Assembly (NCBI GenBank): GCA_031459875.1
Contig: JAVKHQ010000035.1
Coordinates: 1 to 25,984, forward strand
Length of the DNA: 25,984 nucleotides
DNA from: Candidatus Fervidifonticultor sextus
Lineage (GTDB): Bacteria > Sysuimicrobiota > Sysuimicrobiia > Sysuimicrobiales > Humicultoraceae
Direction: 5' to 3'
Under the pieces are notes generated by a model. That model was not told the DNA's origin and made no database searches. It was given only the letters and a program-made list of their open reading frames with translations. Below are positions 10,471-22,911 of the stretch, one piece after another; positions within the stretch are counted from its first letter, which is position 1; each line of letters begins with the position of its first letter. Both the position numbers and the translations under genes were made by a program.

Positions 10471-11114
10471 CCCTCCCGAGCAGGCACCGGCTCGGCCTGG
10501 AGGCTCACCTCCAGCGCCAGCCGGCCCAGGACCTCGCGCGCCCGGCGCGCGTCCCGGGCGTGCACGACGAGGTCGATCCCCTCAGAGCCGCGGAACCGCA
10601 GCGTCTGCAACGACAGGATCGGGACGCCCGAACGCGCCAGGCCTGCGACGATCCGGGGCAGTTCCACGGTCACGCTGCCCACCGCCACGCGCAGCCGGGC
10701 CTCGCCCGGTCTCATCCCCAGGACCTCGGCGAAGACCTCGAAGAGATCGCTCTCGGTCACGATACCGACCAGCCGGCCGCCGTCTGTGACCGGGAGGCCT
10801 CCGACCTTGTGCCGGCGCATGAGCGCGGCGGCCTCCTCCAGCGAGGTCTCCGGTCCCACGACAATCGGCGCCGGGGTCATGAGGTGGCGCACCCGGACGC
10901 CGACGGTCAGGTGCGGGACCTCCCACACCCCGCCGACGGCCGGGGGCCGCACCCGCACCAGATCGGTCCAGGTCACGATCCCCACCAGGGCGCCGTCCTC
11001 CACGACGGGCAGGCGACGGATCCTGCAGCGCCGCATGGTGCCCAGCGCTTCCCAGGCAGGAGCGTCGGGCCCGATCGTCTGCACCGGGCTCGTCATGCAG
11101 TCGCCAACGCGCAT
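10467..11114 (-). CDS. acuB: CBS-pair plus ACT-like protein (AcuB-like)
   Basis: Two CBS domains (IRRLPVV...GIVTWTDL; KVGGLPV...GIVTESDLF) and a C-terminal ACT-like segment; directly follows an AcuA-like gene. Confidence 0.75.
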   Translation of the reverse strand: MRVGDCMTSPVQTIGPDAPAWEALGTMRRCRIRRLPVVEDGALVGIVTWTDLVRVRPPAVGGVWEVPHLTVGVRVRHLMTPAPIVVGPETSLEEAAALMRRHKVGGLPVTDGGRLVGIVTESDLFEVFAEVLGMRPGEARLRVAVGSVTVELPRIVAGLARSGVPILSLQTLRFRGSEGIDLVVHARDARRAREVLGRLALEVSLQAEPVPAREG

Positions 11115-11123
11115 GGTGGTCTC

Positions 11124-11744
11124 CTAGGCGGCCAGTTCGCCCCGCTGGGCCTGGCGGAACCGGCGCAGCAGGCGGGGGGGAACGTCGCGGCCGACGCGCA
11201 CAGCCAGGAAGTTGTTGGGATCCATGGCCACATTGGGTTCGTTCGTCCACTCGCGACGGAAGCCGAAGCGCTCGAAGAGCCGCAGCAGCCGGTCGGCGTA
11301 GACGCTGGCGGCGAGGCCGGTGCCCTCGACGTCCCAGCACCAGACGTAGGCCGTGGCCACGTAGATGCGGGATTCCACCTCGGGCCGCTCGAACGCACGC
11401 CGCATCAGGGCCCGGGCGACCCCGCGCCCGCGCCAGCCCCGCGCCACCTCGATCCCGATCTCGAGCACCCGCAGGTCGTTCAGGCGTCCCCAGGGCTGGT
11501 CGGGGCCCGACGGTACGAGCAGGAGATATCCGACAACGGTCTGACCCGCGACGGCTGCGAAGACCTCGCCGCCGGGCACCCGCAGGGTCTTGCCGAGGGA
11601 TTCCCGGACGATCTCGGTCCGACGTCGGCTGTAGCGCGAGAACGACCCCAGGCCGGGATCGATCTCGTAGTCCGCCAGCGCTCGATTATCTTTGAGCTGG
11701 ATGATCGTGGCGGGGATGCTTTGAAGGGCTGTCGTCTCGGCCAC
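11124..11744 (-). CDS. acuA: GNAT acetyltransferase, AcuA-like
   Basis: IDPGLGSF, VVGYLLLV, VLEIGIEVARGWRGRGVARALM, AYVWCWD, FERFGF, TNEPNV, N-L-VRVG resemble Bacillus AcuA. The start is uncertain (11744 GTG, 11759 ATG or 11843). Confidence 0.75.
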   Translation of the reverse strand: MAETTALQSIPATIIQLKDNRALADYEIDPGLGSFSRYSRRRTEIVRESLGKTLRVPGGEVFAAVAGQTVVGYLLLVPSGPDQPWGRLNDLRVLEIGIEVARGWRGRGVARALMRRAFERPEVESRIYVATAYVWCWDVEGTGLAASVYADRLLRLFERFGFRREWTNEPNVAMDPNNFLAVRVGRDVPPRLLRRFRQAQRGELAA

Positions 11745-11762
11745 CGATCTCGACCCCATGCC

Positions 11763-11809
11763 AGCATAGACCGGGCGCCCGTCCCGGGGCCATCGGACGG
11801 ATACCCTAT
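11763..11809 (-). promoter_or_regulatory. Putative promoter of the acuA-to-vor operon: 18-bp palindrome plus -10 TATGCT
   Basis: + strand ATCGGA-CGGATA-CCCTAT at 11792-11809, a 23-nt spacer, then TATGCT on the minus strand at 11763-11768. Same architecture as the sites at 18705-18774 and 24370-24414. Confidence 0.5.
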
Positions 11810-11829
11810 TTGGGCCTAGACCGCGGGAA

Positions 11830-12360
11830 CTACCCGCGCGCACCCCTACAGGACCCGCCCTCGGCGGCCCCGACGAGGTCCAGCGCTTCGCCCAGCACCC
11901 GTCGGGCCGCCGTCTCCAGGGCCGAGGCGACCGGCGCCGACAGCGCGTGGCCCGGTGAGAACGATGCCCCCTCGATGCCGTAGAAAATCACGCGGGAAGG
12001 ACTGCGACCCAGCGCGCGGGCCAGGCCGACCGCCTCGGCGATGCCAAATGCGTGGGTCGAGGGATGCCGCAGCGCCGGAATGGTCCCCGCTCCCAGGTCG
12101 AGGCGGTAGATGGTCCCCGGCGACGCACCCGAGACCACCGCGTCCACCAGGATGGCCGCCTGCGCCCCGGCCCAGGCCTCCATCAGGGCGGCGGCGTCGC
12201 CGGTATGTTCCACCACCGTGATGGCATCCCGGATACCCCGGCAGGCCGGTTCGGCCAGGAGGACGCCGACGCGCCGGGCTACGGCGAGCCCCGCGGCGTC
12301 GTCGCCGCGGTCGGTGGCGCCGACCCCGATGATCAGGACCGCCTGACGTGCATGCCGCAC
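11830..12360 (-). CDS. [NiFe]-hydrogenase maturation endopeptidase (HyaD/HycI family)
   Basis: IIGVGATDRGDDAAG, ILVDAVVSGASPGTIYR, STHAFG, YGIEG; directly downstream of the large subunit. Confidence 0.88.
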   Translation of the reverse strand: MRHARQAVLIIGVGATDRGDDAAGLAVARRVGVLLAEPACRGIRDAITVVEHTGDAAALMEAWAGAQAAILVDAVVSGASPGTIYRLDLGAGTIPALRHPSTHAFGIAEAVGLARALGRSPSRVIFYGIEGASFSPGHALSAPVASALETAARRVLGEALDLVGAAEGGSCRGARG

Positions 12361-12370
12361 CGGAGGACCG

Positions 12371-13675
12371 CTACGTCCTGGCGACGGACAGGCGCAGAAA
12401 GTGCGTGGCGCACGAAATGCACGGGTCGTAGCACCGGACCAGTTGCTCGCACCGCCAGGTCGCCTCCTCGTGCGGCAGGTCCAGGACGCCCGGGACGAAC
12501 TGCCACAGGTCGTCCTCGATGCGCTTGAGGTTCTGGCTCGTCGGCGGGACGATCCTGGCCGAGGCGACGAGACCGCGGTCGTCGACCTGGTAGCGGTGAT
12601 ACAGGAGGCCTCGCGGCGCCTCGGTGGCGTGCGCGCCGGACCCGGCGCGTGGGGGGTCCGGCAGCGGTGCGCGCGGCGGCGCGGGAGGCTCGTAGGCCCG
12701 GACCAGGGCCAGGGCCTCCTCGAAGGCATGCACCGTCTCCAGGCCCCTCGCCAGCAGGCTCCTGAACGGATTGCGGATCGGCAGCCCCAGCCCGATCTCC
12801 CGCGCGACGGACTGCGCGGCCGGCGAGAGCCGGTCGAAGTTCAGGTTCACCCGACTGGTGGGCCCCACCAGGTAGCTCCGTCCGGTCTCGACGCGGCGCG
12901 CGTGCAGGGCGTTGGCATGGGCCACCTGCTCCTCGATGACGTGCCGCTCGAAGTCTTCGACCGGGGCGTCCAGGCCCGCCGATGAGACGAGGCGCCCCTC
13001 GTTGAGCGGGTATTCGTCCGGGTGCCGCAGGCTGACGAACTCGTAGTCGGCCTCGAAGTCCGGATACTCCAGCCCGGCGGCAAAGCGCACGGCCTCGACG
13101 GCCGTCTCCAGGCCCCACGCCAGGTCCGGCTCCATCGCCGCCAGGTCGGCCCGCCGCGGCGCCCGGTAGAAGCCGCCGACGCAGGCGTTGACCGGGTGGA
13201 TCTCCCTTCCGCCGATGAGGGCCACCAGGCGGTTGCCGATCTGCTTCATGCGCAGCGCCCGCTCGACCCAGGGCCGCAGGCGCGGGTCGGCGGCCATGCT
13301 GAGGGCCGACTCGTGCCCGAGGAAGTCCGGCAGGTGCAACAGGAAGATGTGGAGGACGTGGCTGGAGATCCACTCGCCGCAGTAGAACAGCCGGCGCAAC
13401 TCCCGCACGCCCGGCGGCGGGGTGACCCCCATCGCCTTCTCCAGGGCGTGGGCGGCGCTCATCTGGTAGGCCACCGGGCAGATGCCGCAGATGCGCGCGG
13501 TGAGGTCGGGTGCTTCCTGGTAGTGCCGCCCCCGCAGGAACGCCTCGAAGAAGCGGGGTGGCTCATAGATGTGCAATTGAATGTCGGTGACGCGGTGGTC
13601 CCGGACCGTCACGCGCAGCGCGCCCTCGCCCTCGACGCGGGCTAGGGCGTCGACGGCGATGCGTCGCTCACCCAC
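12371..13675 (-). CDS. hydA: Group 3b [NiFe]-hydrogenase (sulfhydrogenase) large/alpha subunit
   Basis: ARVEGEG, EPPRFFE, L1 [16 protein letters not shown]2 [12 protein letters not shown] followed by a cleavable C-terminal extension (FLRLSVART). Confidence 0.96.
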
Positions 13676-14492
13676 GGCCGGCCTCCCCGGCCCCGCCGGT
13701 GGCGGCCTCCCTCCCGAACTGCATGCTGGCCGCCCTGAACGCCCGGGCGTAGCCGTTGACAGTCCGGAAGGCCCGTGCCACCTCCTCCGGACTCAGCCCC
13801 AGCACCAGGAACTGCGTGCCCAGCGAGGTCACGTTGGGTAACTCCATCGGGCCGAAGCACCCGTAGCAGCCGCGGTGGTAGGCGGGACAGATGGCCCCGC
13901 AGCCCGCCTGCGTGGCCGGACCCAGACACGGGATCCCGTGGGCTACCATGACGCACACGGTCCCCTGCCGCTTGCACTCCCCACACACGCTGTGCGTGGG
14001 CACCTGGGGCTTCCGGCCGATCACCAGTGAGCTCACGAGGTCCACGAGCTGGCGCTTGCTGATCGGGCATCCGCGCAGTTCGAAGTCCACCGGCACGACC
14101 TCGCTGAGCGGCACGGACCGCTCAAGCGCGTGGATGTGCTCGGGCCTGGCGTAGACGACCCGGGTGAATTCGGCCACGTCCGCCCAGTTGCGCAGGGCCT
14201 GAATGCCGCCGGCGGTGGCGCAGGCCCCGATGGCCACCAGCAGCCGCGCCTGCTGCCGGATCTCCTTGAGGCGCTCGACCTCTTCGCTGGTGGTGACCGA
14301 GCCCTCGACCAGCGCCACGTCGTACGGGCCGGGGGCCGTCCGCCGGCTGGCTTCGAGGAAGTAGGCGATCTCCACCTCACCGGCGACGGCCAGCAGTTCC
14401 TCCTCGCAGTCCAGCAGCGCCAGCTGGCAGCCGTCGCAGGAGGCGAACTTGAAGACCGCCAGGGTGGGTTTGCGCCGGCGCACGGTGGCCAT
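13668..14492 (-). CDS. hydD: Group 3b [NiFe]-hydrogenase small/delta subunit
   Basis: [54 protein letters not shown]; no Tat signal. Confidence 0.95.
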
Positions 14493-15367
14493 CAGTACTC
14501 CTCCACCCCGAAGAAGGGCTCGATGCGGTCGTAGCGCAGCACCGGCCCGTCCCTGCAGAGGAAGAGCGGGCCGTACTGGCAGCGTCCGCAGAAGGCGACG
14601 GCGCACTTCATGTTGCGTTCCAGCGACAGGTAGATGCTGCCTTTGGGGATGCGCCTGGCCAGCGCCTCGTAGACGACGAACCGCATCATGATCTCCGGTC
14701 CGCACGTGAAGACCATGGTGCGCCGCGGGTCGGGACGGAGCAGGTAGAAGAGGATGGGCACCACCCCGACGCGCCCCTTCCACGTGTCGTCGGCGCGGTC
14801 CACGGTGACGATCACCTCGATGTCGTGGCGGCGCCAGGCCTCGTACTCCTGTGGGTAGAGCAGGTCGTCCGGCGTACGGGCCCCGATCAGCAGGTGGATC
14901 CGTCCGAACTGTCCCCGATGCCGGGTGAGGTGGTAGAGCGCCGGCCGCAGGGGTGCCATCCCGATGCCACCGGCGACGATGATGAGGTCCTGGCCCATGG
15001 CCCGGTCCACCGGCCAGGGGGTCCCGTAGGGACCGCGGACCCCGATGAGGTCGCCTGGGACCAGCCGGGCGATGGCCTGGGTGACGGTCCCGGCGACGCG
15101 GACTGTGTGCTGGAGGGCGGCCGGATCTGCCGGATCGGAACTGAGGGAAATGGCCGACTCCCCGATCCCGGGGAGGGAGAGCATGTTGAACTGGCCGGGG
15201 CGGAAGCGGTAGGCCTCGCGGACGGCTGGGTCGCGGAACTGAAGCGTGTAGGTGGCGATCCCCGGCGCCTCGGGCCGGACGGCGGTGACCGTTGCGGCAA
15301 GGGGGACCATGGGGTGTCCCACCTCGGGGCGCCGGGAGCCGCTCGCCGCCACCGCGCTCGCGCTCAT
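14492..15367 (-). CDS. hydG: Group 3b hydrogenase gamma subunit (FAD/NAD(P)-binding, 2Fe-2S)
   Basis: [50 protein letters not shown]...CRDGPV. Confidence 0.94.
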
Positions 15368-16500
15368 GACCGGGGCGCCTCCCGGATCGCCGCCACTTCT
15401 TCCGTCAGGTCGATCCCCACCGGGCACCACGTGATGCACCGGCCACAGCCCACGCACCCCGAGATCCCGAACTGCTCGATCCAGGCAGCGAGTTTGTGGG
15501 TCAGCCACTGGCGGTAGCGGGCGCGGACGGTGGGGCGCAGGTTGCCGCCATAGACGTGCGAGAACGCGCCGTCAAAGCAGGAGGCCCAGACCCGGACCCG
15601 TGCCGCCTGCTCGCCGGCGAGATCGCTGGTGTCCTGGACGTCGGCGCAGAAGCACGTGGGGCAGACCAGGGTGCAGTTGGCGCAGGCCAGGCACCGGAGT
15701 GCGACTTCGGCCCAGCGGGGATGCTCCAGGTTCTCGTAGAGGAGCCCGGGCAGGTCCTTCGTCTCCAGCGCCCGGCCCATCCTGGTCGCGGCCTCCTCCA
15801 GCAGGCGCCGGGCACGGTTCAGGACGAAGGCCCCGGCCGGCCGCCAGGGAACCCCGGCCAGCACCTGCGCGCCGAGTTCCGAGCCGACCTCCACCAGGAA
15901 GCCCTCGTCGAGCTCGGTGAGCGCCAGGTCGAACCCCGACGCGCAGCGGGGACCGGTCTTCATCGACGCGCAGAAGCAGACCCCGCCGGGCTCCACGCAG
16001 TTGACCGCCAGCACGAACGCCGCCTGACGGCGGGCCTTGTAGTGGGGGTCCTGGACGGCGCCTTCGAGGAAGACCCGGTCCTGCACCCCGATGGCGGCCA
16101 GGTCGCAGGCCCGCACGCCGATGAAGGCGAACCGCATCGGCGCCTCTCCGTCGGGCTCCACCTCGATCCCCGCGGGGGTCTTCCGGGTGGAGAAGAGCTT
16201 CAGGACCGGAGGATAGAGGTACCGCTTCCACGAGTGCGGCCCGACGACAAACCCGAAGTAGCGGTCGTCGTCCCGCCGGCGCAGCCGGTAGCTGCCGGGC
16301 CCCTGCTCATCGCGCCATCCCACGGGGAGGTCGGACAGCCCCCCGATCTCGTCGTAGACGATGGCGCCGTCGGCGATCGTGGGCCCGATCAACGTGAAGC
16401 CGGCCTCCCGCAGCGCGTCGAAGATGCGCTGCAGCATCGGCTTCTCGATCATCACGTGGGTGCCGACGCTCGGGGCGGAGGTCGGCGTCGGTCCCGTCAT
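15364..16500 (-). CDS. hydB: Group 3b hydrogenase beta subunit (4Fe-4S dicluster)
   Basis: [57 protein letters not shown]. Confidence 0.94.
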
Positions 16501-16985
16501 GTCCGCCCACCGACCCCGTAGACGTCCAGGAGCTGGAGGCGCGTCGCCTTGAGCCGGCTGGCGATGACCTGAGCCAGGATGCGGTAGACCTGGTAGCCGA
16601 GGTCGTGGTCGGCCTCGCAGGCCTGGTGCAGCGCAGCGGCATCGAAGGCGATGGCCCGGGTCGCCAGCAGCGCCCGGGCGCCGGCGGTCTTCTTCTCCAC
16701 CCCCGGCACCGCGGCCGACCATCCGAGGATCTCGTGGGGGCCCACGGTCAGGATGGTCGTCCGGCCCCGGCCGGGGATGTAGGTCTCCAGCGCCACCAGC
16801 CCTTCGACGACCAGGTAGAGCCTGTCGTCCGGTTCGCCCTCCCGGAAGATCACCTGATCTTCGCCCCAGGTCATCTCCTGGGCGAATGCCGCCAGCTGCT
16901 CCAGATGGTGCGGGGCCAGGGCCGCAAACAGCGGGCTGGCGCGCAGCCGGGCCACCAGCGTCTCTCCTGCCCTCGGGCCCGTCAT
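16497..16985 (-). CDS. Stand-alone cyclic-nucleotide-binding (CRP/FNR-type cNMP) domain protein
   Basis: SPLFAAL, VIFREGEPDDRLYLVVEG-VALE, GPHEILGWS, C-terminal RLKATRLQLLDVY; no HTH. This type often accompanies group 3b hydrogenases. Confidence 0.88.
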   Translation of the reverse strand: MTGPRAGETLVARLRASPLFAALAPHHLEQLAAFAQEMTWGEDQVIFREGEPDDRLYLVVEGLVALETYIPGRGRTTILTVGPHEILGWSAAVPGVEKKTAGARALLATRAIAFDAAALHQACEADHDLGYQVYRILAQVIASRLKATRLQLLDVYGVGGRT

Positions 16986-16992
16986 CGTCTGC

Positions 16993-17655
16993 TCACCTTC
17001 CGTGGACGTCCCGCTGGGCCTCGACCCAGGCAATCCAGGCCCCCAGACCCTCCCCGGTGCGCGCGGAGACGGGGAACAGCGGGGCCGCGCTGACCTCGCG
17101 CAGGCCGTCGGCGAACGCCGACATGGAGAAATCGGTCACCGGCAGGAGGTCGACCTTGTTGAGGACCACGGCTGCGGCCCGGGCGAACGCGGCCGGGTAC
17201 TTGCGCGGCTTGTCGTCGCCCTCAGGCACGCTGGCCACGACCACCCGCAGGTGCTCGCCCAGGTCGTAGGCCGCCGGGCAGACCAGATTCCCGACGTTCT
17301 CGATGAAGAGCACCTTGAGGGTCTCCAGCGGCAACCGGCCCAGCGCCGCGCGCACCAGGTTGGCATCGAGGTGGCAGAGGTTGCCGACCAGGCGCGTCTC
17401 GATCTGGACCGCCGGCAGGCCGCAGCGGGCCAGGCGCTCGGCGTCGCGGCTCGTGGCGATGTCGCCTTCGATCACGCCCAGCGGCAGGCGCGGGTGGAGG
17501 ATCGCCGCGGTCTGTTCCAGCAGGGCCGTCTTGCCGCTGCCCGGCGAGCCGATGATGTTGATGGCCACCACGCCGGCGCGGTAAAGCGTCGTCCGGACCT
17601 CCTCGGCCAGGGCGTCGTTGGCCCGCAGCACGCGCTCCAGCACCTCGACCCGCAT
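16993..17655 (-). CDS. hypB: Hydrogenase nickel-insertion GTPase HypB
   Basis: GSPGSGKT, IEGD, CHLDA, IENVGNLVCPA, EGDDKPRKYP, NKVDL, SARTGEG; no N-terminal His-rich segment. Confidence 0.96.
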   Translation of the reverse strand: MRVEVLERVLRANDALAEEVRTTLYRAGVVAINIIGSPGSGKTALLEQTAAILHPRLPLGVIEGDIATSRDAERLARCGLPAVQIETRLVGNLCHLDANLVRAALGRLPLETLKVLFIENVGNLVCPAAYDLGEHLRVVVASVPEGDDKPRKYPAAFARAAAVVLNKVDLLPVTDFSMSAFADGLREVSAAPLFPVSARTGEGLGAWIAWVEAQRDVHGR

Positions 17656-17658
17656 TCC

Positions 17659-17898
17659 TCACTCCCCCTCGATCCACTCCAGGCGCAGGTCTGCACCGTC
17701 CGTGGCCCGCACCTGGAGGGCCGCACCCGCCGTGGGACCGCCCCGGAGGACCTGGAACGCAAAGGCCAGCGCCTCCGGTCCCACCCCGGAGAGCGACCCC
17801 ACGCAGATGCCCACCGCGCTCACCGTGGTCAGACGGTGGCGCGAGACCACCTCGTCCACCTGTCGGAGCAGCGCCTGGGCGATCGACACCTCGTGCAC
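17659..17898 (-). CDS. hypA: Short HypA nickel chaperone lacking the zinc-finger domain (79 aa)
   Basis: MHEVSIAQ N-terminus, VG-LSGV-PEALAFAF, GAALQV, then directly the C-terminal strand G-DLRLEWIEGE; no CxxC...CPxC. Confidence 0.85.
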   Translation of the reverse strand: MHEVSIAQALLRQVDEVVSRHRLTTVSAVGICVGSLSGVGPEALAFAFQVLRGGPTAGAALQVRATDGADLRLEWIEGE

Positions 17899-17906
17899 GG
17901 TCGTCC

Positions 17907-18686
17907 TCAGAACGTCTGGTTGGCCAGCGCCATCATCCCGCGGGTGTACCGCTCCAGCGCGGCCACGTGTTCCGGCTCGAGGAGCACGCAGGCCCATCGC
18001 CAGTGGAACGCCACCACGTCACCGGGCGACGCACCTTCCAGGAACGTGTCGTCGCCGAGGGCGCGCAGCACGCGGGTGGGCTGCAGGTCGCCGAAGGCGA
18101 GCCGGCCCTCGCGGATGCACACCGGCCGGTAGTCCACGACGAAGGCGCCGGGCTCGACGGCGGTGATCGTGCCCCAACCGATGCGGCACAGGTCCAGGGC
18201 GGCGTCGCCCTGGGGCAGTCCGGTCCGCCGGGAGACGTCGAAGACGTGAAAGGCGTGGTGGGCCCGGGCGCCGGCCGACGGCTTGCCCGCCAGGAGGTCC
18301 AGCGCCGACGGCCGGACCTGACGTCGGAACCGTTCGTGCAGGTGGGCCGCGTAGCGCGCCCAGTCCACGTGCTCGAGCAGATCGTTGCCGATCCAGTAGG
18401 CTTCGACGACGCGGCGGTCAAACGGGTCCGGGATGGCGTTGCACTCGGCAATCAACTCCAGATAGGGATAGGCCGCCGCGAAGGTGCGGAGGTGGCGGCG
18501 CAGTCCGTCGTCGGCGGCATCGGCCTGCATGGACGCCAGCAACGCCGCGGCGACGTTCCCGCCGCAGTAGCCCAAGTGGTTGGGCATAAAGGCGAAGCGG
18601 GCGAACAGCCGCAGCCCGTCCAGCGATCCCGGGGTGACGACACCGCATCCCGAATCGGAACGCACTGATGCCTCCCGCGCGCGCAT
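17907..18686 (-). CDS. DUF6390-like protein with an apparent C-terminal HypC-like domain
   Basis: FARFAFMPNHLGYCG, F-AAYPYL-LIA, DPFD-RVVEAYWIGN-LL, HHAFHV, LDLCRIGWG, GDVVAFHW. The family name is recalled from motif familiarity, not searched. Start is ATG 18686 or GTG 18665; both have GGAGG. Confidence 0.75.
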   Translation of the reverse strand: MRAREASVRSDSGCGVVTPGSLDGLRLFARFAFMPNHLGYCGGNVAAALLASMQADAADDGLRRHLRTFAAAYPYLELIAECNAIPDPFDRRVVEAYWIGNDLLEHVDWARYAAHLHERFRRQVRPSALDLLAGKPSAGARAHHAFHVFDVSRRTGLPQGDAALDLCRIGWGTITAVEPGAFVVDYRPVCIREGRLAFGDLQPTRVLRALGDDTFLEGASPGDVVAFHWRWACVLLEPEHVAALERYTRGMMALANQTF

Positions 18687-18704
18687 CCGGCTTCCTCCGC
18701 CGTC

Positions 18705-18774
18705 ACAATACCGTCTGAGGGCGGGGCTGCCCATCGGGCGGGGGCTCGATGGGAGCACCGGACCTTCCCCCGAT
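18705..18774 (-). promoter_or_regulatory. Putative promoter of the DUF6390-hypAB-hydrogenase operon with tandem 18-bp palindromes
   Basis: + strand ATCGGG-CGGGGG-CTCGAT (18733-18750) and ACCGGA-CCTTCC-CCCGAT (18757-18774), a 22-nt spacer, then TATTGT on the minus strand at 18705-18710. Confidence 0.55.
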
Positions 18775-19634
18775 CACCTCGGGGTGGCGGCCTGCGGGTT
18801 GAGCCAGGCGTCGAGATCCTGCCCGACCGCCATCAGGGCGAGCGAGGTGAGGACGATGGCCGCCGCCGGCGGGCCGGCCCACCAGGCCCACGCGTCCGTG
18901 GTGAACAGCAGCGGATGGGCGAAGGCCTGGTGCAGGATCAGGCCCCAGCTCGGGCGGGCCGGATCGCCGAGTCCGAGCAGGCCCAGCGCGGCCTCCAGCA
19001 GGATCGCCCACCGCACCGTGAGGAGGAACTTCGCAGCCAGGATCGGCGCGATCTCCGGCAGCACGCTGGAGTGCACGATGCGGGATGCCGTCGCGCCGGC
19101 CGCCCACGCGGCCTCCACGTAGACCTGTGCCATCGTCACGCGCACCTGCGCGGCCACGATGCGGGCGAATCCGGCCCACCCGATGAGGACCATGGCCGCG
19201 ACCAGCGGCCAGAAGCCCGGCCCCGCGAACATCACCAGCAGCACGACCACGGGAATCCCGGGGATGGCCAGGAAGAGATCAATAAGGACCAGGAGTCCCC
19301 GCCGCCCCTGCTCCCACATCGCTGCGGCCGTGCCCGCGGCCGCCGACAGGATCGTGCTGGCCCCGGCGACCAGGACGCCGAGGAGCAACGAGGTGCGCGC
19401 CCCGTAGAGGACCTGGCTGAGCAGGTCCTGGCCGAGCGCGTTGGTCCCGAGCCGGAAGCGCGCATCCGGCGGCGAGACCGGCCCGCCGACCGACTGGTGG
19501 GGATCGTAGGGCGCCAGGTGCGGCGCCGCGATCGTCAGGACGAGGACGAGACCCAGGGCGGCTCCGCCTGCCCCCGCGGCGGCGAAGCGGCGCCGCCCGC
19601 GGCGGATCCGGCCGTCTGGCCCGCTCCCGCTCAT
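18774..19634 (-). CDS. ABC transporter permease (DppC/NikC family)
   Basis: APYDP, LGTNALGQDLLSQVLYGARTSL, EAA loop YVEAAWAAGA, LGLGDPARPSWG, WW-GPP. Confidence 0.92.
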   Translation of the reverse strand: MSGSGPDGRIRRGRRRFAAAGAGGAALGLVLVLTIAAPHLAPYDPHQSVGGPVSPPDARFRLGTNALGQDLLSQVLYGARTSLLLGVLVAGASTILSAAAGTAAAMWEQGRRGLLVLIDLFLAIPGIPVVVLLVMFAGPGFWPLVAAMVLIGWAGFARIVAAQVRVTMAQVYVEAAWAAGATASRIVHSSVLPEIAPILAAKFLLTVRWAILLEAALGLLGLGDPARPSWGLILHQAFAHPLLFTTDAWAWWAGPPAAAIVLTSLALMAVGQDLDAWLNPQAATPR

Positions 19635-20593
19635 GGAGGTCCCGCCAGCCGGGGATCGAACCAGGCGGCCAGCAGGTCGAGGACCAGCGTGACGGTCAGC
19701 ACCGCCAGGCTGGTGGTGAACACGACGCCCTGCAGGACCGGGAAGTCCCTGGCCGCGACCGCCTGGTAGAGCAGCCAGCCCATGCCCGGGTACGCGAAGA
19801 TGCGCTCGACCACGGCGGCGCCGGCGACGGCGGCGGCCAGGCGCAGGCCGAGCAGCGTCGCCACCGGCGGCAGCGCGTTGCGCAGCGCGTGCCAGGCGAC
19901 GCGGCGGGGCGGCAGGCCTTTGGCCCGGGCGGTCACCAGGTACGGCTGCCCCAGCACCGAGACCGCAGCCCCCCGGACCAGCAGCGCAAACGGCGGCGCA
20001 AAGCCAATGGTCAGCACGAGGCCCGGCAACGCTGCATGCCAGAGGACGTCGGCCAGGACGCGCAGGGGACTTCCGCCCGCTTCGAACGGGGTCGAGGCCC
20101 CTCCGGCGGGGAACAGCGGCCACCGCGAGGCCAGGAACACGATCGCCAGCATCGCCACCAGGAACTCGGGCAGGGTCCCGACCCCGACGAGGGCGGCCTG
20201 CGCCGCGCGCGCGAGGCGCGCCTGCGCCTTCCACGCGGCGAGCCACCCGACCAGTCCGCCGATAACTGCGGCCAGCAGCACGGCGCCGCCCACCAGGAAC
20301 AGCGTCCAGGGCAGCCGCTCGGCCAGGATGTCGGTCACCGGGCGATGGCTGACCAGCGACGTGCCCAGATCGCCGCGGGCCAGTCCGGCGAGGTACCGGA
20401 CGAACTGCACGGCCACGGGGTCATCGAGATGATAGGTCTGGACCAGCGCCTCGCGCGCGGCGGCGGGGAGCAGGACGGCCTCGGCCCCGCTCCCTCCTGC
20501 CACCGGACTCCCCGGCAGCAGACGGGGCAGGAAGAAGTTCAGGACGACCACCGCGCAGACCAGCCCGGCGAAATGCGCCAGACGGCGTCCCAC
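19631..20593 (-). CDS. ABC transporter permease (DppB/NikB family)
   Basis: LNFFLPRLLPGSP, GDLGTS, RLPWTL, YLVTARAKGL, HALRNALPP, VERIFAYPGMG, RDFPVLQG. Confidence 0.93.
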   Translation of the reverse strand: MGRRLAHFAGLVCAVVVLNFFLPRLLPGSPVAGGSGAEAVLLPAAAREALVQTYHLDDPVAVQFVRYLAGLARGDLGTSLVSHRPVTDILAERLPWTLFLVGGAVLLAAVIGGLVGWLAAWKAQARLARAAQAALVGVGTLPEFLVAMLAIVFLASRWPLFPAGGASTPFEAGGSPLRVLADVLWHAALPGLVLTIGFAPPFALLVRGAAVSVLGQPYLVTARAKGLPPRRVAWHALRNALPPVATLLGLRLAAAVAGAAVVERIFAYPGMGWLLYQAVAARDFPVLQGVVFTTSLAVLTVTLVLDLLAAWFDPRLAGPP

Positions 20594-20597
20594 GGGC

Positions 20598-22187
20598 CTA
20601 CCTCATCGGAAGGAAATCTGACGGCGTGATCAGGGCGAGTTTGTTCTCGACCAGCGGGATCCCGTTCATCAACCCTCCCCGGGCGGGCACCGGGGTAAAC
20701 TTCCGGCTGTCGTAGACCCAGTAGAACCGGCGGTAGTACAGCACCAGCGTCGGGAGTTCCTCGGCCAGGATCGCCTGCATGGCCGCCACCACGCGCCGGC
20801 GCGCCCCGACATCCAGCATCCCGACCTGCGCGGCGGCCAGCGCCTGGAACTCCGGGTGCGAAAACGCGCGGCTCTGCCCGAACAGGTTGGCCTCGTCGCC
20901 CACAAACCAGCGCCGCAGGTAGTCGGGGTCTCCGCCGGCCCCGATGTGGAAGGTGAGGGCTGCCTGGAACCGCGCCTCGGCGATCAGGGCGGCACGCGTC
21001 TGGGCGTCCACCGTGCGCAGCGTGACCTCGATGCCGACCTCGCGCAGCATCCGCTGGAGCAGCGGCGCGACGGGCGAGGGGCTGGTGACGATCTCCACAG
21101 AAGGCGCCGCCAGGCCGGCCTGCGCCAGCAGCGTCCGTGCCCGGGCAGGATCGAACGGATAGGCACGCAGGTTCGGCGCAGCCCAGGGATCCCCCGGAGG
21201 GATGACTCCCGGGCTGCCCGGCAGCCCCGGCCCGCGGGTCACCAGCGTGGCCAGCTGCATGCGGTTAGTGGCGTACGCGATGGCCTGGCGGACCGGCTTC
21301 CAGTCCAGCGGCGGCCGCTCCAGGTTGAACAGCAGGCGCGCCACGGACAGCGGCTCGGTGGCCCAGACCCGCAGGTAGGGGTGGTCGGCGAAGGCCCGCA
21401 CGACGTCGTAGGTGTCGGCCATGGCCACATCCGCCTGGCCGCTCTGCACCGCGAGGATCTGACGTTCCGCCGGCAGCACGCTGTAGCGGATCTCGTCGAA
21501 GCGCGGGCGGCCCCGGAAGTAGCGCGGGTTCGCCACGAACCGGTAGTCGCCGGCAGCAGGGCGGTACTCGGCCAGGCGGTAGGGGCCCGAGCCGACCGCC
21601 ACGGCCGGCGTCTGGGCGCGGCGCGGCTCGTCGATCCCCTGCCAGACGTGGGCGGGAATGATGGGGACAGTCCCGGCGACCTGTTCCAGGAACGGCGCGA
21701 ACGGTTCCCGGAGGACGACCGTGACGGTGTGGAGGCCCTCGGCGAGGGCCCGCTCGACGATCCGCGTGTCCATCCAGGCGAACGGATGGACCCGATAGTA
21801 CTCGAAGGTGAACTGCACGTCGCGCGCGGTCAGGGGACGACCGTCGTGCCAGAGGACATCGGGCCGCAGCGCAAACGTGATGCGCCGGCCATCCGGGGCG
21901 ATCCGCCAGGACTGCGCCAGCCAGGGGATCACCCCCTGCGGGTCCTTCCAGGTGAGCGTGTCGTAGAGCAACGAGAGGCGCACGACCCCGCCGGGCCCCA
22001 CGGTCGAGAAGGCGAACGGCGTGGGGAATCCCACATCGGTCCACCAGAGGAGCCGCAGGACCGCAGGAGACCGGGCCTGCGCGGCCGGCGGAAAAGAGAC
22101 GGCGAGGGCGGCCGCCAGGATCGCCGCCGCCCCCAGCGCCACGGCCCTGTGGTCAGAGCGGGTGCTGCGCCGGACGGCCGCACTCAC
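20598..22187 (-). CDS. ABC transporter substrate-binding protein, family 5 (peptide/nickel); Ni uptake inferred from context
   Basis: Signal peptide ending in AQA, LYDTL, PWLAQSW, F-LRPDVLWHDGRPLTARDVQFT, GSGPY. GTG 22187 overlaps the hypC stop (GTGA); 22223 is an alternative start. Confidence 0.9.
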   Translation of the reverse strand: MSAAVRRSTRSDHRAVALGAAAILAAALAVSFPPAAQARSPAVLRLLWWTDVGFPTPFAFSTVGPGGVVRLSLLYDTLTWKDPQGVIPWLAQSWRIAPDGRRITFALRPDVLWHDGRPLTARDVQFTFEYYRVHPFAWMDTRIVERALAEGLHTVTVVLREPFAPFLEQVAGTVPIIPAHVWQGIDEPRRAQTPAVAVGSGPYRLAEYRPAAGDYRFVANPRYFRGRPRFDEIRYSVLPAERQILAVQSGQADVAMADTYDVVRAFADHPYLRVWATEPLSVARLLFNLERPPLDWKPVRQAIAYATNRMQLATLVTRGPGLPGSPGVIPPGDPWAAPNLRAYPFDPARARTLLAQAGLAAPSVEIVTSPSPVAPLLQRMLREVGIEVTLRTVDAQTRAALIAEARFQAALTFHIGAGGDPDYLRRWFVGDEANLFGQSRAFSHPEFQALAAAQVGMLDVGARRRVVAAMQAILAEELPTLVLYYRRFYWVYDSRKFTPVPARGGLMNGIPLVENKLALITPSDFLPMR

Positions 22188-22417
22188 GGTGGGGAGGGAT
22201 CCGAGGTCCACAGCGCGTCCCACACCGCCAGGATCTCGGCGGCCTCGTCCGCGTCGATCTCGCGGATCGCCGACCCGTAGGCGACCAGCACGTAGGTGCC
22301 GACCTCAGGCGCCTCCAGCAACCCGGTGGAAATCTCGCGGAGGCCGTCGGGTCCCTGGGCCCGCGCGCGCCCGGGGCCCAGCAGCGTCACGATGCGGTAG
22401 GGCAGGGCCAGACACAT
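22184..22417 (-). CDS. hypC: HypC/HybG/HupF-family hydrogenase chaperone (variant lacking the conserved His)
   Basis: MCLALP N-terminus, REI, VGTYVLVAYG-AIREIDADEAAE; canonical HypC has GDYVLVHVGFA. Confidence 0.85.
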   Translation of the reverse strand: MCLALPYRIVTLLGPGRARAQGPDGLREISTGLLEAPEVGTYVLVAYGSAIREIDADEAAEILAVWDALWTSDPSPP

Positions 22418-22527
22418 GGTTCCAGAGGCAGTATCGCATACGCCGCCGGGGGCCCGACAATACTCTTCTGACTCGATGGACACCCTCGGACGCCGGCGGT
22501 ACGGTCGAGCCGGAGGGGGGAGAAACC

Positions 22528-22911
22528 GTGTCCACCGTGGACGACGCCATCCGCCGCGCCTACAACGAACTGGGGGAGCGCCGCTTCGCCGGCATCTGCG
22601 GAGCCTACTTCAAGGGGGACGCCTGGTTCGAGGAACACATCCCCGCGTGCTCCCGGCAGGAAGAGGTCGTCCTCCGGAACATCTGCCCGATCTACACCTG
22701 CGCGCAGCAGCGGGGGGTGGAGCACTGCGGGGTCTGCCCGGAGTTCCCCTGCCACCTGCTGCTGCTCTTCACCTCCCACGACGAGCGGCCGGGCGAACGG
22801 CTGGTCTCGGCCGCGATGCGTCAGGCCCTGGGGGAAGACGGCTGGCAGGCGTGGGCGGCGAAGCGGTCGTTTGCCGGGGTGCTCTGTCCGCTGCAGCCGA
22901 GGACGCGCTAG
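22528..22911 (+). CDS. Cys-rich DUF3795-like putative metal-binding protein
   Basis: GTG after GGAGGGGG; CPIYTCAQQRGVEHCGVCPEFPC matches the C-terminal Cys cluster of DUF3795. It is the only convincing + strand gene and is divergent from hypC. Confidence 0.72.
   Translation: MSTVDDAIRRAYNELGERRFAGICGAYFKGDAWFEEHIPACSRQEEVVLRNICPIYTCAQQRGVEHCGVCPEFPCHLLLLFTSHDERPGERLVSAAMRQALGEDGWQAWAAKRSFAGVLCPLQPRTR

Follow-up and report, generated by a model that had tools for sequence, protein, structure and literature searches.

We propose that the DUF6390 protein encoded on contig JAVKHQ010000035.1 of Candidatus Fervidifonticultor sextus (phylum Sysuimicrobiota, assembly GCA_031459875.1) is the iron-holding scaffold of a [NiFe]-hydrogenase maturation branch that needs no HypD, HypE, or HypF. 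The probability of this reading is put at roughly 0.55. The contig was analyzed over its full length of 25,984 nucleotides, which is called the window here. It carries a hydrogenase gene cluster that includes DUF6390, hypA, hypB, and hypC. According to the accessible text of two papers from 2025, a review and a research article, the NiFe(CN)2CO cofactor, with its cyanide (CN) and carbon monoxide (CO) ligands, is made by six Hyp proteins, all of which are required (PMC12134894, PMC12130793), and the first of these, the review, describes HypCD as the construction site for Fe(CN)2CO. The same portion of the review mentions no organism that lacks HypDEF. A first-pass annotation of the window had suggested that the DUF6390 protein may replace or supplement the HypCD scaffold, and both the distribution and the fold of the protein now speak for that suggestion.

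In a full-text search of the literature, with subscription journals and supplements outside its scope, no paper on DUF6390 was found, and none of the papers listed dealt, by title or abstract, with [NiFe] maturation without HypDEF. The hydrogenase groups of Sysuimicrobiota, together with chemoautotrophic enrichments that include this genus, are covered in PMC11604079; in its accessible text hyp genes are not discussed, and the word "maturation" occurs 0 times.

Distribution of DUF6390 and HypD

The occurrence of DUF6390 and HypD was compared in three sets of genomes. The phylum set comprised 94 genomes of Sysuimicrobiota, and the Acidimicrobiia set, which served as an independent replicate, comprised 151 genomes that were at least 85% complete. 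For the cross-phylum set, 50 genomes from 80 loci were chosen solely because they hold a DUF6390 relative. Among the 48 hydrogenase-positive genomes of Sysuimicrobiota, 37 had DUF6390 only, 7 had HypD only, none had both, and 4 had neither, these four being 68, 83, 91, and 92% complete. In the 46 hydrogenase-negative genomes of the phylum, DUF6390 was found in none and HypD in one. The 43 hydrogenase-positive Acidimicrobiia genomes were divided between 25 with DUF6390 only and 18 with HypD only; no genome had both genes or neither of them. None of the 108 hydrogenase-negative Acidimicrobiia genomes contained DUF6390 or HypD. Genomes of the DUF6390 type and of the HypD type were also found side by side in one Sysuimicrobiota genus (g19). 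Two alternative solutions to one task would be expected to be partitioned in this way, and the partition is seen alike in two phyla and inside one genus.

A [NiFe]-hydrogenase large subunit was present in all 50 genomes of the cross-phylum set. HypD was absent from 43 of them, and the same 43 had no HypE above the cut-off. When the unpublished genome G012 was excluded, HypD was absent from 42 of 49. HypF was also absent in 42 of the 50 genomes. Enrichment of DUF6390 in hypDEF-negative genomes, which the first-pass annotation had named as a point in favor of its suggestion, is borne out in each set (HypD absent in 37/37 DUF6390 genomes of the phylum, 25/25 of the Acidimicrobiia, and 43/50 of the cross-phylum set). 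The contrary picture, a canonical hypCDEF set elsewhere in the genome combined with a DUF6390 that is always accompanied by hypDEF, did not emerge.

HypF without HypD or HypE was observed once, in a Thermomicrobiaceae metagenome-assembled genome (MAG; G016, the genome of locus L022), at C504:1691-3496 with 627 bits. This HypF may have been left over from a former set, may have entered the MAG through a binning artefact, or may serve a different purpose.

Search for HypD, HypE, and HypF

The window is an entire contig of a 3.05-Mb genome that was assembled in 67 contigs and is 96.2% complete. The HypD profile (PF01924) gave 0 matches in this whole genome; in a control search, HypD matches were obtained in 4 of 14 named control genomes. 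The hypE model recovered only AIR-synthase paralogues, the best at 96 bits against a cut-off of 251.6. The best match of the hypF model was an acylphosphatase, which reached 43 bits against a cut-off of 466. In the first-pass annotation no hypD, hypE, or hypF had been seen in the 26 kb, and this holds for the window as well as, by profile search, for the whole genome. Of the canonical HypABCDEF set, HypA, HypB, HypC, and the endopeptidase are present, HypA and HypC as variants; HypD, HypE, and HypF were not found. HypD was likewise absent from all five congeners, and neither HypE nor HypF exceeded the cut-off in any of the five most complete relatives (96-100% complete). In sister genomes, the same models recovered HypD, HypE, and HypF at 425-780 bits.

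An AIR-synthase-family gene (C1:117642-118691, corresponding to L154:3643-4692) was considered as a hidden HypE and rejected. Its product scored 98.5 bits on ThiL and a similar 96 bits on HypE, in both cases below the cut-off, and its end has no cysteine motif. The gene adjoins Hsp33 and sugar-modifying genes and has no hydrogenase context. Hits of this AIR-synthase type to the hypE model recurred at 104-119 bits in all five relatives checked, and sub-threshold hypE hits were also obtained in hydrogenase-free control genomes.

Fold and Conserved Residues of DUF6390

DUF6390 and HypC are each present in a single copy in the genome. Residue numbers of DUF6390 refer to a 255-residue query, window:17910-18674. 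Forty-one members from six or more phylum-level groups were aligned (Sysuimicrobiota, Chloroflexota, Patescibacteria, Bathyarchaeia, Actinomycetota including Acidimicrobiia, and MAGs that bear the label Gammaproteobacteria or Spirochaetia). Pro31-Asn32, Cys37-Gly38, an EAYWIGN block, His140, Cys163, and His224-Trp225 were invariant in all 41 sequences. His139, His143, and Cys229 were near-invariant.

The AlphaFold2 model of DUF6390 (predicted local distance difference test score (pLDDT) 92.8, predicted template modeling score 0.90) shows a helical domain (residues 20-160) and, after it, a beta-barrel and a helix. In both VIA and Foldseek, the top structural match was HypC from Thermococcus kodakarensis (2z1c). 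In VIA, residues 163-251 of the model were superimposed on residues 2-72 of 2z1c_A with Z 5.7 and a root mean square deviation of 2.1 Å over 71 of 71 residues, which ranked first of 48,161 chains. Foldseek gave a probability of 1.0 and an E value of 0.02 for the same structure. Because model residues 163-251 lie on HypC residues 2-72, Cys163 falls on the essential Cys2 of HypC, and a profile search paired the invariant His224 with the conserved His of T. kodakarensis HypC. HypC chains of the PDB matched the DUF6390 family profile only at E 0.3-0.7, and the DUF6390 of the window gave no PF01455 hit at E ≤ 0.001 and no NCBIfam hit. HypC and DUF6390 open reading frames (ORFs) fell into one cluster in BLAST clustering. 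By its predicted structure, DUF6390 joins a new helical domain with conserved Cys and His residues to a domain of the HypC fold, in which the putative counterparts of HypC Cys2 and His51 are kept.

The N-terminal domain alone was modeled with a pLDDT of 82.3. Its best VIA rows were acyl or peptidyl carrier proteins (Z 3.9-4.3), which lie within the noise of helical bundles, and no fold was assigned. When residues 14-160 were compared with a protein atlas, leaving out the DUF6390 clusters, no usable match came up. Prediction of a complex between DUF6390 and stand-alone HypC, both entered as alignments, scored 0.00 and weighs neither way.

Two unusual genes were observed. Just upstream of DUF6390 in a Chloroflexia MAG, an ORF of 243 residues (L035:9217-9945, plus strand) has a HypC domain only at its C terminus (residues 163-218); either the ORF was called too long, or it encodes a second protein built like DUF6390. 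The DUF6390 gene of a Patescibacteria MAG (L031:10001-10777) contains an in-frame stop under table 11, which could reflect an alternative genetic code or a broken gene.

HypC and HypA Variants

Stand-alone HypC was retained in 48 of the 50 DUF6390 genomes. The HypC of the window scores above its model cut-off (57.5 versus 48 bits) and has Cys2, but reads VLVAYGSA where HypC from HypD-containing genomes shows V(I/L)(V/I)H.G, with Ala in the position that is His51 in E. coli HypC. This column was examined in 54 sequences plus that of the window, with G012 left out. It was occupied by His in 13 of 13 HypC sequences from the seven HypD-containing genomes and in 9 of 42 from the genomes without HypD, where the other residues were A, V, T, N, Q, S, Y, or I.

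The HypA of the window begins with the His-Glu nickel site after its GTG start codon and has no CxxC motif in its 79 residues, so that the zinc site is missing. It scored 40.3 bits with TIGR00100, below the cut-off of 88.1, because only model positions 1-65 of 116 are present. A zinc-less mini-HypA of 79-84 residues occurred in 15 of the 32 loci with HypA near DUF6390; the remaining 17 had one or two CxxC motifs. Its carriers are Sysuimicrobiota, one Dehalococcoidales MAG, and Patescibacteria. The mini-HypA is a recurrent variant that follows lineage. Both deviations had been recognized in the first-pass annotation, which described a His-less HypC and a zinc-free HypA and took them for co-adapted anomalies. 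For HypC, co-adaptation is supported by the contrast between 13/13 and 9/42; for the lineage-bound mini-HypA the support is only partial.

Transporters and Neighborhood of DUF6390

ORFs within 4 kb of DUF6390 were collected from the 80 loci and clustered, and the clusters were named by Pfam. A transporter was found in 50 of the 80 loci (EamA in 21, ATP-binding cassette (ABC) type in 19, major facilitator superfamily (MFS) in 10). HypD was near DUF6390 in 12 loci, none of which also had a transporter. The presence of three unrelated transporter families in one position indicates that transport of a small molecule or metal belongs to the module where HypDEF is absent. A second HypC-like ORF was present in 57 of the 80 loci, HypA in 32, and HypB in 23. 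No other conserved family of unknown function was found near DUF6390 across phyla in this clustering. In Patescibacteria the order is beta subunit, gamma subunit, HypC, EamA, DUF6390, small subunit, and large subunit, the position of HypC being deduced from coordinates. DUF6390 accompanies both 3b-type operons and group-1-type operons with cytochrome b.

The window itself has a Nik/Opp-like ABC module. The first-pass annotation had assigned it as a nickel/peptide ABC module, which agrees with the best family matches of the binding protein and two permeases, but the module has no ATPase gene, and no Walker A plus LSGGQ signature was found anywhere in the window. Elsewhere in the genome, 59 ABC-ATPase-like signatures were counted. 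Most related loci of the ABC type likewise have no ATPase; only in L085 do two ATPases adjoin the permeases. The module does not qualify as a NikABCDE nickel importer, since nickel families are its best matches but stay below their equivalog cut-offs and the NikD and NikE ATPases are missing from the window. The adjacent transporter is the sole recurrent candidate for bringing in a ligand precursor; in the window, the family matches point to nickel.

Hydrogenases of the Genome

The hydrogenase of the window has the features of group 3b, namely an alpha, delta, beta, and gamma subunit set (NiFeSe_Hases, Oxidored_q6, Fer4_22, and FAD/NAD domains) and both CxxC pairs of the large subunit (RICGIC ... 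DPCISCATH), which also keeps its C-terminal extension. This assignment to the 3b type was made from domains and motifs, and the best NCBIfam matches were sulfhydrogenase alpha subunits, below cut-off. A second hydrogenase, of the Mvh/Hdr type, is encoded at C49:39-5001 (locus L153) with an HdrA-like protein, MvhD, small and large subunits, and its own maturation protease. As it has no hyp genes of its own, it presumably shares the maturation module of the window. Both hydrogenases keep a dedicated endopeptidase and the active-site cysteines of the window enzyme are intact, which argues for working enzymes. Across the loci of the phylum, the gene order of the cluster is kept at protein identities of 44-97%. 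When one metatranscriptome of the same study was compared with positions 11100-22500, short partial contig matches were obtained, 93% of which continued into unlike sequence. Further along C49, molybdopterin genes and NADH-dehydrogenase-like genes were observed.

Proposed Role of DUF6390

In the proposed mechanism, DUF6390 would hold iron while the active-site precursor is built, which is the job of the HypC-HypD scaffold. The C-terminal HypC-type barrel would supply Cys163 and His224 as counterparts of the two iron-binding residues of HypC, and the helical domain would supply Cys37 and the cluster of His139, His140, and His143. Together, the two domains would replace the ligands given by HypC and HypD in the canonical complex. 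From DUF6390 the iron would pass to stand-alone HypC or straight to the large subunit. Stand-alone HypC, with His51 lost and no HypD to pair with, would have no task other than delivery to the large subunit. Nickel would be inserted via the Nik-like importer, mini-HypA, and HypB, and the endopeptidase would finish maturation, both steps being canonical. DUF6390 would accordingly bind iron and stand in for HypD, and the enzyme would probably keep its CN and CO ligands. We place DUF6390 on the iron side of the gene sets because a HypC-like ORF is near it in 57 of 80 loci and because it directly follows hypF-hypC-hypD-hypE in Streptomyces.

The proposal can be compared with known systems. The HypC-HypD scaffold (Escherichia coli; T. 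kodakarensis, PDB 3vyr) also combines a HypC-type barrel bearing Cys and His with further Cys ligands, belongs to a hydrogenase cluster, and has the job proposed here, holding the active-site iron before transfer to the large subunit. In contrast to it, the window has no HypD, and the N-terminal domain of DUF6390 is all-helical and about 145 residues long, with no [4Fe-4S] motif seen and no predicted Rossmann fold. Moreover, the two parts are fused in one chain, and the cyanide suppliers HypE and HypF are absent. With HypC, HybG, HupF, and HoxL (PF01455, TIGR00074; PDB 2z1c, 2ot2, 3d3r), DUF6390 shares a fold, that of its residues 163-251, and conserved residues that correspond to Cys2 and His51. 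It differs from them in its internal cysteine, in not reaching their models, in the 160-residue domain ahead of the barrel, and in coexisting with a separate HypC in 48 of 50 genomes. HypX is a formyltetrahydrofolate-dependent enzyme, which DUF6390 does not resemble. HupK and HoxV resemble the large subunit, unlike DUF6390. All three are additional maturation factors of O2-tolerant hydrogenases that work with HypCDEF and not instead of it. They are comparable as accessory carriers or modifiers of the Fe(CN)2CO unit (for HoxV, accessible text of PMC12134894). By analogy, DUF6390 may be an add-on factor of this kind in the Streptomyces operons. For the binding protein and both permeases of the window, the best family matches are the nickel importer NikABCDE and the staphylopine importer CntABCDF, but the scores are below the curated cut-offs, the cluster has no ATPase, and in other phyla the place is taken by an EamA or MFS permease.

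Several observations weigh against the scaffold proposal. Nothing in DUF6390 resembles HypE or HypF, and the model gives no source for CN and CO; the conserved neighborhood of DUF6390 contains no HypE/F-like, radical-SAM, or other candidate for making these ligands. The transporter adjacent to it in the window resembles a nickel importer, which fits a role on the nickel side equally well. Seven of the 50 DUF6390 genomes (four Streptomyces, one Acidimicrobiia MAG, one Nitriliruptorales MAG, and one MAG labelled Spirochaetia) also hold HypD, HypE, and HypF, and DUF6390 is part of the operon that encodes them. The Streptomyces genes are arranged as endopeptidase, hypC-hypF, hypC, hypD, hypE, and DUF6390, from which it follows that DUF6390 can act beside HypDEF. 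The invariant residues are identical in the HypDEF-bearing genomes, and together with the co-occurrence this means that the basic job of DUF6390 may exist beside HypDEF and not replace it. HypC is defined by a free cysteine at its N terminus, but the corresponding Cys163 of DUF6390 lies inside the chain, behind some 160 residues. No fold could be assigned to the N-terminal domain (best Foldseek E 2.3), which makes its metal binding a guess from the conserved Cys and His residues. The carriers of DUF6390 without HypD are nearly all MAGs. Finally, the Fisher values for the alternation with HypD (4e-6 for the phylum, 2e-12 for Acidimicrobiia) are descriptive only, since relatives are not independent and significance is overstated.

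An alternative is that DUF6390 handles metal on the nickel side, passing nickel or a nickel chelate from the importer to HypA and HypB, with the loss of HypD, HypE, and HypF compensated by something unrecognised. The frequent transporter within 4 kb (50/80 loci, three unrelated families), the nickel importers among the best matches of the ABC module, the position of hypA and hypB directly after DUF6390 in the window, and a mini-HypA whose missing zinc domain could make a partner necessary all fit such a role. We nevertheless regard it as unlikely. DUF6390 has its fold and its conserved Cys/His pattern in common with HypC, which carries iron, and in HypD-containing genomes DUF6390 follows hypE and is not beside hypA and hypB, with a transporter in 0 of 12 HypD loci. 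EamA and MFS proteins are, to our knowledge, not among the nickel-importer families. The alternation with HypD and the loss of His51 in HypC would also be left unexplained. DUF6390 might instead be a mere specialised HypC-type chaperone, comparable to HupF, HoxL, or HybG, of one kind of cluster; the alternation would then reflect cluster acquisition, and the iron center would be made by other enzymes, scavenged, or chemically different. The HypC fold of the C-terminal domain, the full HypCDEF set in 7 of 50 genomes, the occurrence of both types inside one genus, and the horizontal acquisition of hydrogenase genes in this phylum, as stated in the accessible text of PMC11604079, are in line with this idea. 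It appears quite unlikely in view of three findings: DUF6390 occurs with both 3b-type and group-1-type operons, so that it is not tied to one cluster type; nearly every hydrogenase genome in two phyla has exactly one of DUF6390 and HypD, as is the case for functional alternatives; and no other conserved unknown family accompanies DUF6390 across phyla.

Two further explanations would remove the need for a new branch altogether. The hypD, hypE, and hypF genes could lie in unassembled parts of the genome or be too diverged for recognition, for which the 67 contigs, the completeness of 96.2%, and the AIR-synthase-family protein (96 bits with the hypE model, 104-119 bits for its counterparts in relatives) leave some room. 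This is very improbable, because HypD is missing from all 37 DUF6390 genomes of the phylum, including a 4-contig genome of 97% completeness and one of 100% completeness, and from all 25 of the Acidimicrobiia. The models detect the three proteins at 425-780 bits in sister genomes, and the AIR-synthase protein, equal on ThiL, has neither the cysteine end motif nor hydrogenase neighbors and has its like in hydrogenase-free controls. Alternatively, the hydrogenase genes could be decaying relics whose maturation has been lost. This is hardly credible for a cluster that keeps every subunit intact, along with both CxxC pairs, the C-terminal extension, and the dedicated endopeptidases, and that has a gene order conserved at 44-97% identity in the phylum and a pattern that recurs in many phyla.

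A broader form of the scaffold proposal is that a widespread HypD/E/F-independent pathway for the [NiFe] active site exists in Sysuimicrobiota, Chloroflexota, Acidimicrobiia, Patescibacteria, and Bathyarchaeia. The iron scaffold of this pathway would be DUF6390, and the transporter would supply a precursor; CN and CO would be made or acquired by chemistry independent of carbamoyl phosphate, HypF, and HypE, or the site would carry another ligand set. We consider this possible, although somewhat short of an even chance. Dozens of genomes from unrelated phyla combine intact [NiFe]-hydrogenases, HypC, endopeptidases, and DUF6390 with the absence of HypD, HypE, and HypF. If the enzymes are active, either the CN and CO ligands arise by a new route or the [NiFe] site is built differently. 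Either outcome would bear on the long-open questions of where the CO ligand and the active-site iron come from, and on hydrogenase engineering with a smaller set of helpers. For annotation, many uncultured genomes that are hydrogenase-positive and hyp-negative would no longer look incomplete. At about 11 kb, the gene set of the window is compact and fully ordered and lends itself to direct testing.

Gene Content of the Locus

Nearly every gene of the window is on the minus strand, as judged by third-position GC analysis and Pfam. Read from 22417 down to 11830, the cluster consists of hypC, a binding protein, two permeases, DUF6390, hypA, hypB, a cyclic-nucleotide-binding gene, four hydrogenase subunits, and an endopeptidase. 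Pfam and NCBIfam thereby confirm the first-pass inventory of a hydrogenase and endopeptidase flanked by hypC, an ABC module, DUF6390, hypA, and hypB. DUF6390 had been placed first in the operon; that place belongs to hypC, and DUF6390 is the fifth gene. HypB carries the GSPGSGKT, CH, and ENVGNLVCP motifs.

Features of the hydrogenase and maturation cluster in the window
Feature	Position	Strand	Family matches and remarks
hypC, 77-residue chaperone, Cys2 kept	22184..22417	-	PF01455 61 bits; TIGR00074 57.5 bits (cut-off 48)
Family-5 solute-binding protein, NikA-like, signal-peptide-like N terminus	20598..22223	-	SBP_bac_5 230 bits; nickel_nikA 127 bits, below cut-off 393
ABC permease, NikB/Opp2B-like	19631..20593	-	BPD_transp_1; nickel ABC permease Opp2B 212 bits, below cut-off 350
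ABC permease, NikC/OppC-like	18774..19634	-	BPD_transp_1; NCBIfam Opp4C, Opp1C, NikC at 114-124 bits (cut-offs 300-358)
DUF6390, predicted helical domain plus HypC-fold domain	17907..18758	-	PF19927 201.2 bits (cut-off 25), profile positions 4-240/244
Mini-hypA, 79 residues, GTG start	17659..17898	-	PF01155 45.3 bits (cut-off 28.9), profile positions 2-67/112
hypB, canonical GTPase metallochaperone	16993..17655	-	TIGR00073 234.7 bits (cut-off 121.2)
Stand-alone cyclic-nucleotide-binding-domain protein, between hypB and hydB	16497..16985	-	PF00027 48 bits; ATG at 16985
hydB-type beta subunit (Fer4_22)	15364..16500	-	PF17179 111 bits
hydG-type gamma subunit (FAD/NAD-binding)	14492..15367	-	NAD_binding_1 and DHODB_Fe-S_bind
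Hydrogenase small (delta) subunit, hydD	13668..14492	-	Oxidored_q6 92.6 bits
[NiFe]-hydrogenase large subunit, hydA	12371..13675	-	PF00374; sulfhydrogenase HydA 241 bits, below cut-off (best NCBIfam match)
Hydrogenase maturation endopeptidase	11830..12360	-	HycI PF01750 42 bits

A frameshift between the cyclic-nucleotide-binding and hydB frames was considered and rejected: these are two genes, and the ATG at 16500 overlaps the stop at 16497-16499. Similar sequence to the cyclic-nucleotide-binding gene adjoins the 3b hydrogenase in Acidimicrobiia loci and in relatives, where it occupies the position that it has in the window, and the protein could be a regulatory subunit or sensor for the hydrogenase. 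Directly after the endopeptidase lies a GNAT acetyltransferase gene (11124-11843, minus strand), which is also found downstream of the hydrogenase in L007, L010, L011, and L013 at 53-95% identity. Divergent from hypC, a Cys-rich DUF3795 protein is encoded at 22528-22911 on the plus strand (PF12675, 32 bits; no NCBIfam match). The left end of the contig (312-1748, minus strand) carries DUF4143 and PIN-domain genes. These are followed, all on the minus strand and as assigned by Pfam, by genes for TatC, a P-type ATPase, a LuxR-type response regulator, and a three-subunit pyruvate:ferredoxin oxidoreductase.

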